A stretch of DNA of 64,000 bases from NCBI GenBank assembly GCA_041742355.1, contig JBGSIV010000139.1:511-64510 (forward strand), in the 5' to 3' direction. Source of the DNA: Candidatus Zixiibacteriota bacterium. GTDB taxonomy: Bacteria; Zixibacteria; MSB-5A5; GN15; FEB-12. The notes under the pieces were generated by a model. That model was not told where the DNA came from. It did not search any database and saw nothing but the letters and a program-made list of their open reading frames with translations. Shown here piece after piece: positions 14,015 through 54,608 of the stretch. Positions within the stretch are counted from its first letter, which is position 1. Every line of letters begins with the position of its first letter. Both the position numbers and the translations under genes were made by a program.

Positions 14015-15460
14015 GACGGGAAAGCGAAGGGACGTTCTGTGCAGGATGGTGTGAAGGCTCACCGTCAGCCTCTCCGGGGAGCCTGGTGGAACCTCCCGGA
14101 TGAAGCGACCGATGGAGCAGGGGAGTTACGCGATTGGGTCGAGGCTGCCGATATCCAGGATCTGAGGCGGGAGGTGTATCGAGGGAAGGTGACAGAAGTG
14201 TATTGAGAGTCGGACGTAAGAGGCGGATGCAGCTGAAAGCATTACTCTCGAACTGCACCTTCGATGGCGCAACTCTTTGCCCGACATACAAAACCCCTTT
14301 CAACTTGGTCGCTGAAGGGGTGCATATTCATAAAAAAGCTCCGTAGTAGAAGCTTTGTTCCAAACTAGGCTATTTGACCCAAATTGGCCCTCCTTGTACC
14401 ATCTTCCGAAAACTTTCCTACAGAAGCCCGTGAATTCCGGCCAACATGCCAGCCTACTGCATTTAAGCATCGCTAAGACAGTGAGTTATGGCAACGGCGG
14501 GGCTGGCCGACATCCGGTCCGAGGGGACATCTCGGTACATTTCAAAGCGCAAATAGGGTTGAGTTGGGGGCAAGTGAGCCTTGATAGGGACGCTGGCAAT
14601 AATACAACAATCAGGCAACTTGGGACGCTATTAGAATCTCTCTTGCGCTGACATGATTCAAATCCTCACAGCGGAAACATCAGTCCATTTTGTGCCGCAT
14701 GCGATTAGGATACATAGATCCACATCCGTCAAGCCCCGCATTTGATCGATTTCTGGATCCCTATCCGTTCGAGGGACAACAGACTACGAAGGCTGATTCT
14801 ATTTGAGAAGGGTTCTTACTTGCTCAGGGCTAACTGCCTCGAGCGTCTCAGGGTTGAATAAGATGTCATCTCGGGTGCAGTAGTACAGCTTCTCCCAGCG
14901 TTCCAATAAAACTCTCCAAGTCTCCTCCTGAATCTTCAAGACCTACTCATCCGCCTCCGTTCCCCGAATTCCTCAAGAAGCTTTCGTCGAGCACTTGCCA
15001 TGGTGATCCAGTGAAGTGCAGTCTGCGCTTCGCGGACCTCGGAGTCAAGAATTGATCCACCCATTCTCTCAAAGATAGGAGGCTTATCCCGACTGATAGA
15101 AGTCTTTGCGCAACTCATATGATTCCATCGCGTCAAGTTTCTCACCATGGATGCCGTCGGCGACTTGCGATTCCTTTCAATGGCCTGAGTGAGCCGTACT
15201 TGTGAACTTCAGTTGTCCAGTCAGGTGCACCTTCGACTCGACGTGATCTAACGGCGCAGAGATTATTCCTGCGACTCCGAAGCCGTGACAGCTCTTGCGG
15301 TTATGGCGCAGCAGCAACTGCCGCGAGATACCAGTTGTGAACAGGGAAAGAATTTCTGAAATTCCCGTGAAAATCACAGGCATCGCGGCCATGTACATGT
15401 GAGTAGACTGCTGGAGATATCGTCCGGCGAAATAAGTTGACCCGATAACGAGGAGATCGC

Positions 15461-16030
15461 ATGAGTGATTCAGCCCGTGCATTTTGGGATGAGGTCCTCG
15501 ATGAAGGATGGCAACGGCGAGGACCCGCCATAGTGGTCAACCGCATATTCGCCAAATATCAACTTACAATCCCGTTTCAAGAGGCTGAAGATCTTTTCTC
15601 GGAGGCTCTGGAGCGCATCCTCAAGAACGAATCGATCGCTAAGCTTCAACGTATGCCGGCTATCGACGTTCGGAGGCTGTTATTTGGTTATCTCCGGAAT
15701 GTAGTGAGAGAGTGGTTTCGAAAGACCAAGCGGCATCCGTCGATTTCTTTGGACGGGCCGGGATCTCAAGTTGCGTTGGAATATCAGGTAGAAAGCCTGA
15801 TACAGAAGCCCGATCTTCGTGGACGGATTATCCGCGAGGCTCGAGACGCCCTTGAACCGGAAGAGCGGTTGATTTTTGAGCTTTACTATTTTGATGGAAG
15901 AACTCAGCAAGAGATATCTGATTATATGTCCTGCTCGATCGGAACGGTAAATGGGCTTGTGCAGAGCTCTTCTAGAAAGTTTCGCGATGTTGTTGATAGA
16001 GTATGCGAGGTGAAGTATGAAAAGATGTAG
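15461..16030 (+). CDS. ECF-type sigma-70 family RNA polymerase sigma factor
   Basis: 189 aa. LFGYLRNVVREWFRK looks like region 2. ERLIFELYYFDGRTQQEISDYMSCSIGTVNGLVQSSSRKFRDVV is the region 4 HTH. GAGGAG lies upstream of the ATG. Confidence 0.8.
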   Translation: MSDSARAFWDEVLDEGWQRRGPAIVVNRIFAKYQLTIPFQEAEDLFSEALERILKNESIAKLQRMPAIDVRRLLFGYLRNVVREWFRKTKRHPSISLDGPGSQVALEYQVESLIQKPDLRGRIIREARDALEPEERLIFELYYFDGRTQQEISDYMSCSIGTVNGLVQSSSRKFRDVVDRVCEVKYEKM

Positions 16031-16655
16031 AGGGGATCAAGAACTGCGCCAATACCTCCGCGGCAATTTGCAGGATGAACTCATGGACGCGATTGAGGAG
16101 CACCTCATTATCTGCGACAATTGTGCGTCCCGAATTAAAGAGGTGCGCCTGGAGGTGGAAGTTGAGAGACTGGTGACTCCTGTGGTTCAGGATATGAAGA
16201 AGATTTTTGCCGAAGACCGGACAAGTGCGTTCCAAGTTATTGTCCGGCAAGCCGATCAGGTATTCAAAGACTCTCTGGCTGGCCTGGAGGATGCTCTCAG
16301 GCGCCTCCTCGATGGGTTTCGTCTGGCCACTTTGGTTCCAGCTGTCGGAGGAGTCTTGAGTTCCGATGATACACGGCAGAGTAGAGCAATTGAACTGCTG
16401 CTTCATGACAGGAAATTGAAGCTCGAAGAACTATCATCGGATGCGAAGTTCGAAATGAAACTTGATCGCGACGGACGGAATCTGCGGCTCTATGTTCCTA
16501 AGAAGATGATTGAGAAGCACTCAACCTTGGATGTTGTTGACGGAAGAACCAGATCGACAATCCAGCAGATCCATACGGATGCTACGGACGGTTCATACGT
16601 CATTCCCCTCGACTTACTACAGCAAGGTGTGATGCTGCAGATACGAAAGGAATAG
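16017..16655 (+). CDS. Zinc-binding anti-sigma factor (ZAS, HxxxCxxC), apparently cytoplasmic
   Basis: EEHLIICDNCASRI carries the H-x3-C-x2-C motif near the N-terminus. Its start overlaps the sigma gene by 14 nt. No hydrophobic transmembrane segment is visible. Confidence 0.65.
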   Translation: MKRCRGDQELRQYLRGNLQDELMDAIEEHLIICDNCASRIKEVRLEVEVERLVTPVVQDMKKIFAEDRTSAFQVIVRQADQVFKDSLAGLEDALRRLLDGFRLATLVPAVGGVLSSDDTRQSRAIELLLHDRKLKLEELSSDAKFEMKLDRDGRNLRLYVPKKMIEKHSTLDVVDGRTRSTIQQIHTDATDGSYVIPLDLLQQGVMLQIRKE

Positions 16656-17354
16656 TGTAGCCACTTCTGTCCGCCGATATCCTTCTGTCTTTCCGGTGCT
16701 GCTCACTGCTTGTTTTCCTATTGCGTCTGATAGATGTACGCCCCGTCGGTGCTAAGACGGTTCTCCCAGTCGTCATGAGTATTCTCGGCAGGCGGGCCGT
16801 ACAGATGGTGAAGGCGAGACTGAAGCGTAGTCAGCATTTGCAGGCGGGATCAATTCTGGCCCATAACAAACTCCCCTCAGTATGCCAAGAATGATCGCGT
16901 CAATTTCAAGCATGTCGTTACCGGTTTCGCTGGATGGCAACTATAGTGGCCGGTTCCGAAACCAGCAGCGCCGTCAACTGCACCATCGCATTACCCTCGC
17001 GAACACGAGTTACGAGAGGCTGTGCGCTCTTAGCTCTGAGAACTACGGGTGGTGCGATATCGGGTACTACAGTAACCAATTTTGCACGAAAGAACTTGTC
17101 CCGGCGAGTCGAATACTATCCAAATCGAACCGGGCAGGGTCACTTGCTAAGACTACACACCGGTTCGGAAGCTGCAACGGCTGCTCGATCTCTGGCCTAC
17201 CTTTGTCGGCATTCGCTATGATCCGTATGATGATGAAATTCAAACCTGGTGAGCCCGAAGAGGATCAAGTGGGAAAGGCAAGGGCTAAACATGATTGCTA
17301 TCTTCCTGGTTCACCTAAAGGCTACAGAAATTGAAGTAATCTCTCAGGAACACC

Positions 17355-53401: not shown

Positions 53402-53706
53402 GAGTCAGCAAGGAATGTTCTCTACGGGTACTGCCATCACTGCAGTGATGGGAAACTGATGGCCGGAGTTCACCTTTGGCCGCGTGATTTTGGAGGAGAA
53501 TCCGTGGACATAGACAACATTCACCCCGACTGACAAAGGCCAGGATCAAAGATGTTCTGCGGCCAATCCCGGGGTTCGCAGAAGCCGTCCCTCTGGTGGC
53601 GGAAGTTCGTGACAACGAGCTGAAAGACGCCGTGCAGATGTGTTTCACGTCTGGTGAGTGAGCCATTTGTGCGGAGGACAGATGTCCTGCTGAGAGGAGG
53701 TTACAA

Positions 53707-54081
53707 GTGCCCGCGATTAGGCAGTATCGTTGTAGCTTCGGTTGGTTCTCTTTGCCTTCAGGCTGGGGTGGTGTCGGTTATGTAACTGACAACTCTGGAA
53801 ATCGCGTCATCCTTCGACATCCGTGTGAAGAGTTTGTGATCCGCGATGTTCTTGGACCTGAGGCTACGCGACAACTGATTGATGAGCGAACCGGAGTTTG
53901 GAGTGACTGTGTCTGTGCCGAGTGTCTTTGCATGTTTATGCTGGACTTGAAACGGGATTGCAGGGCATGTCCTGAGTGTCGATCAACGGCAGTGAGGAGT
54001 ATGCGTGAGAGCGTAGGAGAGAAATGCCCGAAGTGCTCGCAGGGAACGATCGAGGAACTCGACACTGGGATCTGGACGTGA
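53707..54081 (+). CDS. Small zinc-ribbon protein
   Basis: 124 aa with a GTG start. CVCAECLC, CRACPECRS and CPKCSQG are Cys pairs. Confidence 0.45.
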   Translation: MPAIRQYRCSFGWFSLPSGWGGVGYVTDNSGNRVILRHPCEEFVIRDVLGPEATRQLIDERTGVWSDCVCAECLCMFMLDLKRDCRACPECRSTAVRSMRESVGEKCPKCSQGTIEELDTGIWT

Positions 54082-54608
54082 TTGCTTGAGAGAAATATGA
54101 CACGATATAGGAACAGAACTGGTCCATACCGGAGCGTCGTCCGGAGGACTCGAAGAACTGGAGGTGAGCTGTGCTGAAAGATGAACTTCCGGGAACTCTC
54201 ATTGTGCCGAGCATTGCCGTCGGTGGCGGAGTCATTTACGCGCAGGACAAGGACTCGTAACTTTTGATACGGGCCATTCGCAATTTGAGACTGATTACCC
54301 CGCGCCGCGGTTTTCTTACTGCGCGAATTGCAGTCACATCCATCAGGCATGCCCTTACCCCTGCTCGACGTCGTTTCTTTCCCGCACGGACGCTTCGGGC
54401 TCTAAGTCACCCGTTCACAGATCCTCAGATCAATTCGCCAGAATACAGCTGACTTGGAGAGTGTTTGGTGCTCCCAATGGCTTTCTCATGCTTGGCAACT
54501 CACTCGGGCCGTGCTCGTAACATACCTACCAATAGGCACTTAGCGTCGCCCTTGGAGTTGATTTGGCTGACATGAAGAGATTCGCCGTTCGAACAACGGA
54601 TAAAAAAG

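Follow-up and report, generated by a model that had tools for sequence, protein, structure and literature searches.

A 40-kb island without a recombinase between tRNA-Asn and a serine recombinase relic in a Zixibacteria genome

We analyzed a 64,000-nt stretch of DNA (hereafter, the window; positions 511-64510 of contig C139) from a metagenome-assembled genome (MAG) of Candidatus Zixiibacteriota (source genome G000; 4.37 Mb in 310 contigs, 93.8% complete, 1.9% contamination). The window contains an island of 40,256 bp (positions 14344-54599; 40,270 bp counting one copy of its terminal repeat), which is inserted at the 3′ end of the gene for tRNA-Asn. Perfect 14-nt direct repeats mark its borders; it encodes no recombinase, and it separates the tRNA from the remnant of a large serine recombinase (LSR), a relic outside the island that stems from an earlier element at this hot spot. 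It is likely that the island represents a single block of horizontally acquired DNA that entered by site-specific insertion at the tRNA 3′ end, lost its recombinase, and is now fixed.

Borders, composition, and empty site of the island

The features that define the borders and their immediate surroundings are the following (window coordinates):

14104-14346, + strand: LSR pseudogene remnant, the last ~80 amino acids (aa; ...LLSNCTFDGATLCPTYKTPFNLVAEGVHIHKKAP*), outside the island; identified by tblastn and hidden Markov model (HMM)
14294-14320, − strand (tRNA-sense): hairpin with a trailing U-run, 14-17 nt from where the tRNA formerly ended
14330-14343, + strand: left repeat copy, ATAAAAAAGCTCCG, a displaced attachment site (att) core with 6 nt of the tRNA-Asn 3′ end
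54600-54613, + strand: right repeat copy, overlapping the tRNA-Asn 3′ end
54608-54681, − strand: intact tRNA-Asn(GTT), 3′ end toward the island; identified by ARAGORN
55941-58130, + strand: double-PDZ protein and HPr kinase (HprK), core genes of the right flank; identified by Pfam

Read on the tRNA-sense strand, the repeat consists of CGGAGC, the last 6 nt of tRNA-Asn, followed by the 8 nt TTTTTTAT. The 4.37-Mb assembly contains two copies of ATAAAAAAGCTCCG, counting both strands, and these are the two island borders; the left copy is the sole notable tRNA-derived match within the window. The tRNA-Asn gene, the only one of its kind among the 49 tRNAs of the assembly, remains intact, with the island edge 9 nt beyond its 3′ end. 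This is the classical integration geometry recognized in a preliminary description of this DNA. The borders given there, 14050 and 54608, were accurate to within 9 nt on the right, whereas the true left end (14344) lies ~290 nt further to the right. A direct repeat of at least 15 nt of the tRNA 3′ half had been anticipated at 13.6-15.5 kb; a repeat is present in that region, but it is 14 nt long and includes only 6 nt of the tRNA.

A match of at least 14 nt between a 70-nt tRNA-end query and the 64 kb was obtained in 5% of Markov shuffles, and the chance of such a repeat, scaled to the 1.9-kb region named in advance, is ~0.0015. We consider the repeat convincing because it falls within this pre-named region, coincides with both compositional change-points, and occurs in a terminator and hot-spot context (see below). 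No third or internal direct-orientation copy of the 14-nt core, exact or degenerate, was detected in the island, where the sole match with up to 2 mismatches is on the opposite strand, and no third att copy belonging to the older element was found. Terminal inverted repeats of the island do not exceed 8 nt, and dyad symmetry in the reconstructed attP site was limited to a 12-nt arm with 3 mismatches, which is not significant (arms at least as good, 12 nt with ≤2 mismatches, occurred in 8% of random 110-mers). A target duplication of the casposon/transposon type, suggested by the 14-nt length, was considered and rejected given the lack of Cas1, PolB, a transposase, and terminal inverted repeats. 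Just outside the borders are 2 tandem arrays unrelated to each other, a noncoding 18-bp repeat of 4-5 units on the left (13924-14018) and a C-rich 17-bp repeat upstream of tRNA-Asn on the right (54763-54845); a short repeat is also found upstream of tRNA-Glu in the same-genus genome G002.

The G+C content of the island is 55.8%, a value that also holds for the interval first proposed (14051-54607), compared with 63.8% in the left flank (1-14050), 61.3% in the right flank, and 60.4% in the genome (standard deviation of 5-kb windows, 1.9%), which makes it the second-lowest-G+C 40-kb stretch of the assembly. Along the window, G+C runs at 62-67% up to 14 kb, at 50-61% between 14 and 55 kb, and at 58-66% thereafter; in 500-bp windows, it falls at ~14.25 kb and climbs at ~54.7 kb, and these change-points coincide with the repeats. 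Tetranucleotide distances to the genome mean place all 8 island windows of 5 kb at the 90.5-98.5th percentile (6 of them at or above the 97.5th), whereas the adjoining flank windows are at the 54th-78th. G+C at third codon positions (GC3) ranges from 0.50 to 0.72 for genes of the island, whereas most flank genes have values of 0.74-0.85. Within the island, G+C varies by module, from 50% in the extracytoplasmic function (ECF) sigma part and the ends to 56-57% in the large operons and 59% in a methyltransferase cassette. The sliding-window checks thus bear out the earlier suggestion of a lower-G+C island of ~40 kb; the hand-counted values behind it were correct for the segments concerned (43.3% at 39601-39660 and 46.7% at 47101-47160), but these are local minima of an island with a mean of ~56%.

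Three genomes of the same genus (G001, G002, and G003) were compared at the DNA level, with the island queried as two 20-kb halves. The only matches were those of 64-71% to repeated propeller units and a weak one to the kinase gene. Both flanks were recovered nearly whole in G002 and G003, at 70-78% nucleotide identity. The empty site was found in G012, a member of another genus in the same family, in which tRNA-Asn is located upstream of the PDZ-HprK genes and is abutted directly by a homologue of 14104-14343. When the flanks of the island are joined (14104-14343 and 54614-54700), they are colinear with G012 across the junction, agreeing at 229 of 312 positions (73%). The cargo has an accessory distribution: no island gene lies within 6 kb of HprK/tRNA-Asn in the loci of 80 relatives. 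An exact look-up of 2 window proteins in public assemblies returned no record. The acquisition had been regarded as old, which is not supported: the repeats are perfect, the large open reading frames (ORFs) are intact, the composition has not been ameliorated, and 2 congeners are without the island. As to timing, it can be said only that the island arrived after the split from the G002/G003 species, and nothing further.

Recombinase relic, terminator hairpin, and the tRNA-Asn hot spot

The recombinase relic at 14104-14346, overlooked in the preliminary description, is the C-terminus of an LSR whose frame runs through the left repeat to a TAG codon at 14344-14346. When the LSRs resident in the genome were used as tblastn queries, the only significant match in the window was between the C99 LSR (aa 402-476) and 14104-14316 on the + strand (35% identity, E 7.7e-5). 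An HMM built from 10 family members recovered the remnant with an E value of 1.1e-9 (model positions 449-488) and gave no other match in the window.

The hairpin at 14294-14320 lies on the strand opposite the C-terminal LSR codons PFNLVAEG and is the presumed intrinsic terminator of tRNA-Asn. Throughout the family, the C-terminal motif of which is PTYKKPF[ND]xxxxEG, the hairpin is the antisense of the codons PF(N/D)xxxxEG preceded by KK, and conservation of its 9-bp stem extends over 13 LSR/tRNA junctions, with a compensatory change in one pair. A hairpin with a U-run is positioned 14-17 nt downstream of 13 other tRNA genes; the sites are G000:C99:19050-19134, C153:12762-12840, and those in loci L021, L227, L237, L202, L223, L247, L042, L177, L180, L181, and L183. 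In the window, the left repeat is 15 nt from its hairpin, a tRNA-like distance, and the left copy therefore stands where the tRNA end belongs. C-terminal LSR stubs that retain the hairpin persist beside many tRNAs, and the hairpin has the appearance of a terminator supplied by the element. The stub next to the island may accordingly have survived because its hairpin terminates the tRNA.

The tRNA-Asn/PDZ/HprK locus is a recurrent landing site. Linkage of tRNA-Asn to PDZ/HprK is conserved across Zixibacteria, with HprK present in 30 of 31 relatives and tRNA-Asn located upstream of it in ~41 of 80 loci. The LSR family was found in 17 of the 31 genomes of the order, in which full-length members abut tRNA-Ser, tRNA-Gln, tRNA-Asp, and tRNA-Arg, and C-terminal stubs abut tRNA-Arg, tRNA-Gln (twice), and tRNA-Ser, as well as tRNA-Glu in G002. 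Among the 80 HprK loci, full-length LSRs overlap the tRNA-Asn end in L227 and L237, LSRs limited by contig ends abut it in L202 and L203, and L223 has a frameshifted stub. Locus L247 (1317-4596 of the Zixibacteria MAG contig CAWGEP010000004.1) consists of an LSR, a 41-nt partial tRNA-Asn, a 3.2-kb insert, and a full tRNA-Asn, a tandem layout that matches that of the 40-kb island. The insert has no recombinase and encodes, in 2 frames, a secreted protein that, judging only by its sequence, is possibly a subtilase-like protease, perhaps frameshifted. Tyrosine recombinases were not found at the tRNA-Asn site in the genomes examined.

Two further observations concern the same locus. Contigs of several Zixibacteria assemblies break off at the 3′ end of tRNA-Asn or no more than 100 nt away (G002:C6, L244, L257, L241, L259, and L215), which fits strain-variable insertions that disrupt assembly. 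In G005 (C1:147531-169088), tRNA-Asn has the opposite orientation and is located beside PIG-L, with ~15 kb between the tRNA 3′ end and PDZ-HprK; either a further insertion at the hot spot or an inversion there may have produced this arrangement.

The association of LSR C-termini with tRNA terminators is a more unusual lead than the island itself. It is conceivable, although we consider it improbable, that this LSR family serves the tRNA-Asn locus of Zixibacteria, that its last ~15 codons double, on the opposite strand, as the terminator of the target tRNA, and that the family supports recombinase-less passenger islands moving in trans. If so, the terminator role would account for the persistence of C-terminal stubs once the remainder of the LSR element has gone, and passenger islands would insert between the LSR and the tRNA, with the 40-kb island and the 3.2-kb L247 insert as 2 examples.

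Absence of mobility genes and origin of the island

The island contains neither a tyrosine nor a serine recombinase, as the preliminary description had noted. Six-frame searches of the genome with PF00589 and PF00239 gave no match on this contig, and Pfam searches of every ORF of at least 100 aa in the window identified no recombinase of either type. The island ends were searched separately: six-frame Pfam comparisons of 14300-15480 and 53380-54620, in which stop codons were translated as X, yielded no family at E ≤ 1, and tblastn with the 3 resident LSRs and the L138 LSR produced no match there. Even with --max, the HMM of the 10 LSRs had no significant match inside the island (best E 0.25, at 15266-15373). 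In an intact element, the recombinase would be expected at 53402-54599, which contains no LSR sequence. Both ends had been described as gene-poor and decayed; they are gene-poor, but no gene remnant is detectable inside either of them. Relaxase, type IV secretion system (T4SS), and coupling-protein domains were absent from the ORFs of at least 100 aa (Pfam), and terL, portal, capsid, and tail genes from the island (Pfam and PHROGs), which has only terS-like helix-turn-helix (HTH) genes and a methyltransferase gene. Lacking genes for a recombinase, an excisionase, a relaxase, a T4SS, and virion proteins, the island is non-autonomous, as the term is used for cis-mobilisable elements (CIMEs), and its sequence layout is best read as CIME-like.

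Elsewhere in the genome, there are 2 tyrosine recombinases (PF00589), both of Xer-like size and on other contigs, and 3 LSRs, each adjoining and convergent with a tRNA, namely tRNA-Met (C191), tRNA-Ser-TGA (C99), and tRNA-Leu-CAA (C138). The first of these LSRs belongs to an intact island of 36,383 bp (G000:C191:2458-38924; G+C 54.4%) with a 42-nt direct repeat, which corresponds to the 3′ half of tRNA-Met, beginning at the anticodon loop; the LSR (560 aa; 2484-4163, − strand) overlaps tRNA-Met with its 3′ end. The two islands are similar in size and low G+C content, and in each, one border is a tRNA 3′ end while the opposite border carries a direct repeat. The tRNA-Asn island differs in having no LSR and in its repeat, which measures 14 nt and is located at the extreme end of the tRNA, and the two have no genes in common.

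The part of the island that most resembles a mobile-element backbone is a cassette in its middle:

37007-37810, − strand: MerR-like HTH protein; identified by Pfam
35505-36980, − strand: ParB_N-N6/N4 DNA methyltransferase; Pfam, and PHROG 498 at 1e-135
35018-35512 and 34503-35021, − strand: two terS-like HTH proteins; PHROG 6299 at 1e-17 to 1e-23

The genes follow in this order on the minus strand of 34503-37810, and neither terL nor a portal gene is present. Relatives of the cassette (34503-36980), at 64-71% aa identity, were found in MAGs whose labels represent at least four phyla (Zixiibacteriota, Krumholzibacteriia, Ignavibacteria, and Acidobacteriota). In the 8 closest loci (L132-L139), a ParB-N6 methyltransferase gene is followed by 1-3 terS-like HTH genes without terL, and 6 of these loci have an LSR within 7 kb; the surroundings also include a DUF2924 gene in L138 and genes for HTH_36 and a DnaB-like helicase in L139. 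No tRNA was found nearby in any of these loci. In a characterised phage, a homologous methyltransferase gene precedes terS-terL-portal. The cassette could be a phage-satellite-like element, and we interpret it as a pared-down backbone, derived from an LSR-type element or from a satellite, that would be either the island's own or that of a nested guest.

Under the explanation that we favor, an earlier LSR element at tRNA-Asn would have decayed to a C-terminal stub of ~80 codons with its terminator hairpin. A crossover within the 14-bp core (CGGAGC followed by TTTTTTAT) would then have inserted the island between the tRNA and the stub, duplicating the core as a perfect direct repeat at both ends, leaving the tRNA intact, and displacing the former tRNA 3′ flank by 40 kb. 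The island carries cargo modules and a degenerate mobile-element backbone; loss of its own recombinase after integration is the most likely course. It is probably fixed in place now, since the LSRs of the genome are dedicated to other tRNAs and only an 80-aa stub is left of the one at tRNA-Asn. We regard the insertion with its exact borders, the empty site, the lack of a recombinase, and the LSR relic and hot spot as demonstrated, and the loss of the enzyme and the present fixation as inferred. Whereas the crossover took place here in the last 14 nt, the L247 element and the C191 tRNA-Met island use the 41-42-nt tRNA 3′ half, and the integrating enzyme was therefore not simply of the L247 or C191 type.

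Several points weigh against this explanation. The repeat is short and, taken alone, only marginally significant (p ~0.05 window-wide). An empty site was not found within the genus: G002 contig C6 ends exactly at the tRNA-Asn 3′ end and the left-flank genes of G002 are on 2 other contigs, the G003 contigs are too short, and G001 is without the locus. The 30-mer spanning the empty site was absent from JGI metagenome contigs, which is uninformative, as the population is possibly outside that collection. The assembly is 94% complete, so that a cognate recombinase could be in the missing 6%. Finally, the sole backbone-like cassette is in the middle of the island (34.5-37.8 kb) and its relatives use LSRs away from tRNAs, so a nested or composite origin fits better than a single simple element.

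Such a composite origin, with at least 2 events of tandem accretion and/or nesting of a methyltransferase/terS-like LSR element or satellite, followed by deletions that removed the recombinases and internal att sites, is a possibility that we hold to be clearly less probable than a single acquisition. It would account for the differences in G+C among modules (50%, 56-57%, and 59%) and for the mid-island position of a cassette that in 6 of its 8 closest relatives has its own LSR no more than 7 kb away (in L138 also with DUF2924) and in none of them a tRNA nearby; tandem structures, moreover, occur at the hot spot (L247). On the other hand, all modules deviate from the genome in composition, and the island has no additional direct-orientation copy of the core, even a degenerate one. 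For the outer borders, a composite origin is compatible with the explanation given above. We regard it as rather unlikely that the island is a non-autonomous element (CIME or satellite) that is still mobile, moved in trans by an LSR of the genome or of a co-resident element. The att-like repeats and cargo ORFs are intact, each of the 3 LSRs in the genome is at a tRNA, L247 provides a second LSR-less insert between an LSR and tRNA-Asn, and the terS-like genes recall phage satellites. However, the resident LSRs target tRNA-Met, tRNA-Ser, and tRNA-Leu rather than tRNA-Asn, the tRNA-Asn-specific LSR beside the island is an 80-aa relic, the crossover in the last 14 nt departs from the 41-42-nt tRNA 3′ half used at tRNA-Asn in L247 and at tRNA-Met in C191, and attP is without significant dyad symmetry.

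It is very improbable that the region is native, a fast-evolving variable segment beside the tRNA with a coincidental 14-nt repeat. Matches of at least 14 nt do arise window-wide in 5% of shuffles, propeller paralogs of ~50% identity are present elsewhere in the genome, and synteny of the left flank is scrambled within the genus; yet the repeat coincides exactly with both compositional change-points and spans the tRNA end at the canonical distance from a tRNA-type terminator, and the joined flanks recreate the G012 arrangement. Least credible of all is an assembly or binning artefact, that is, a contig chimeric between 2 organisms. Although the source is a fragmented MAG (310 contigs, 1.9% contamination), both junctions are within one 65-kb contig, the 14-nt repeat is shorter than assembler k-mers, and 2 joins placed exactly on the tRNA end and the displaced terminator are not credible.

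As an object, the island is unremarkable: apart from the integrase, it agrees in every tested respect with a textbook tRNA-associated genomic island (GEI). Classical GEIs of this kind, of the pathogenicity-island type, are catalogued by Islander and TIGER. The island shares with them the atypical G+C and oligonucleotide composition, insertion at a tRNA 3′ end with regeneration of the tRNA, flanking direct repeats, accessory cargo, and absence from close relatives; unlike them, it has no integrase anywhere, its repeat holds only 6 nt of the tRNA, and its host belongs to the uncultured Zixibacteria. The island lacks the integrase of a GEI, the virion and packaging genes of a prophage, and the relaxase and integrase of an integrative and conjugative or mobilizable element, and it does not have the LSR that is convergent with, and overlaps, the tRNA 3′ end in Zixibacteria LSR elements of the C99/L227/L237 type. 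It does have the structure of a CIME, being bounded by att sites and free of recombination and conjugation modules. CIMEs are known from sites of the ICESt1/St3 type in Streptococcus thermophilus. The island resembles them in its att-type repeats, its lack of recombination and transfer modules, and its tandem position with the relic of a recombinase-bearing element, but it has no functional partner element, and the recombinase family of the site is that of LSRs rather than tyrosine integrases. Homologues of terS without terL occur in phage satellites. The island recalls grounded or defective prophages and satellites resembling phage-inducible chromosomal islands (PICIs) in that its ParB-methyltransferase gene is followed by terS-like genes, an order seen in phages directly before terL and portal; unlike in such elements, capsid, portal, terL, tail, replication, and integrase genes are all absent, and the cassette occupies 3.3 of the 40 kb.

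A literature search on LSR/tRNA islands returned none specific to this lineage. To our knowledge, few mapped mobile elements have been reported for Zixibacteria, an uncultured phylum. The island provides a base-exact example of island integration in this group, in which LSRs hold the tRNA-proximal position usual for tyrosine integrases.

Cargo modules and flanking genes

Outside the methyltransferase cassette, the island contains the following features:

15461-16655, + strand: ECF-type sigma factor (189 aa) and zf-HC2 anti-sigma factor (212 aa); Pfam Sigma70_r4_2 1.6e-9, zf-HC2 5e-4
17355-30208, − strand: surface-protein operon; Pfam and paralogy
17355-25187, − strand: four paralogous fn3/BACON/beta-propeller lipoproteins of this operon; Pfam
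25204-26937, − strand: FG-GAP/BACON protein of this operon; Pfam
27818-30208, − strand: CHAT-fn3 protein of this operon, which also includes, on the same strand, a 273-aa protein; Pfam
31194-34074, + strand: acidic repeat proteins of 444 and 512 aa, whose genes contain minisatellites of 39 nt and 15 nt; repeat search
38150-39481, + strand: DUF262 (GmrSD_N)-HNH nuclease; Pfam HNH 3.4e-8 and GmrSD_N 5e-7 (under the Pfam cut-off), PADLOC NsnA 8.8e-12
40266-53401, + strand: eleven-gene block; Pfam, PADLOC, and NCBIfam
40266-40988, + strand: weak ECF-like sigma factor of this block
41533-42729, + strand: Hanks Ser/Thr kinase of this block; PADLOC, PD-T4-6/mad6-like
47097-49586, + strand: Hsp70-like protein of this block, 829 aa
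50981-52339, + strand: CFI-box-CTERM protein of this block
53402-54599: gene-poor tRNA-proximal end, with a 124-aa zinc-ribbon protein (53707-54081) as the sole ORF

The accessory content that had been listed for the island, comprising ECF sigma factors, CHAT, a kinase, a methyltransferase, an HNH nuclease, and an Hsp70-like protein, is present in full, and horizontal acquisition with several unrelated cargo modules is supported. All large ORFs of the island are intact. The propeller domain of the surface-protein operon has paralogs of ~50% identity elsewhere in the genome, so the donor was probably not distant. Pfam and PHROG searches with the acidic repeat proteins gave no match. The eleven-gene block further includes proteins of 721, 410, and 335 aa without assigned function, a TPR protein, and a Clp_N-like protein; of 284 other Zixibacteria genomes, 4 encode homologues of the 721-aa protein, with identities of 26-36%. 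When proteins encoded at 38-53 kb were analyzed with PADLOC, the DUF262-HNH protein (NsnA-like, 8.8e-12) and the kinase (PD-T4-6/mad6-like) were matched, and the other 8 proteins scanned had no convincing match, the sole further one being LmuB at E 0.007. The DUF262-HNH protein is a candidate type IV restriction or defense gene product, judging from these domain matches. For annotation, the CHAT/BACON operon, the DUF262-HNH gene, and the kinase/Hsp70-like block are strain-specific, horizontally moved cargo rather than core Zixibacteria biology, a status that matters for interpreting the functions of these genes.

The left flank, where synteny is scrambled already within the genus, contains the following gene:

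10452-13637, − strand: 1061-aa secreted LamG/ConA-like protein with a dockerin-like C-terminal tail, native by its GC3 of 0.82; Pfam

Its ortholog in G002 shares 69% aa identity and is encoded at a different locus. The tail (10452-10670; ~70 aa, a weak match to Dockerin_1) recurs at the ends of ~100 proteins of the genome, at 50-70% identity, is also present in all 30 relatives, and resembles a lineage-wide sorting or anchoring tail.

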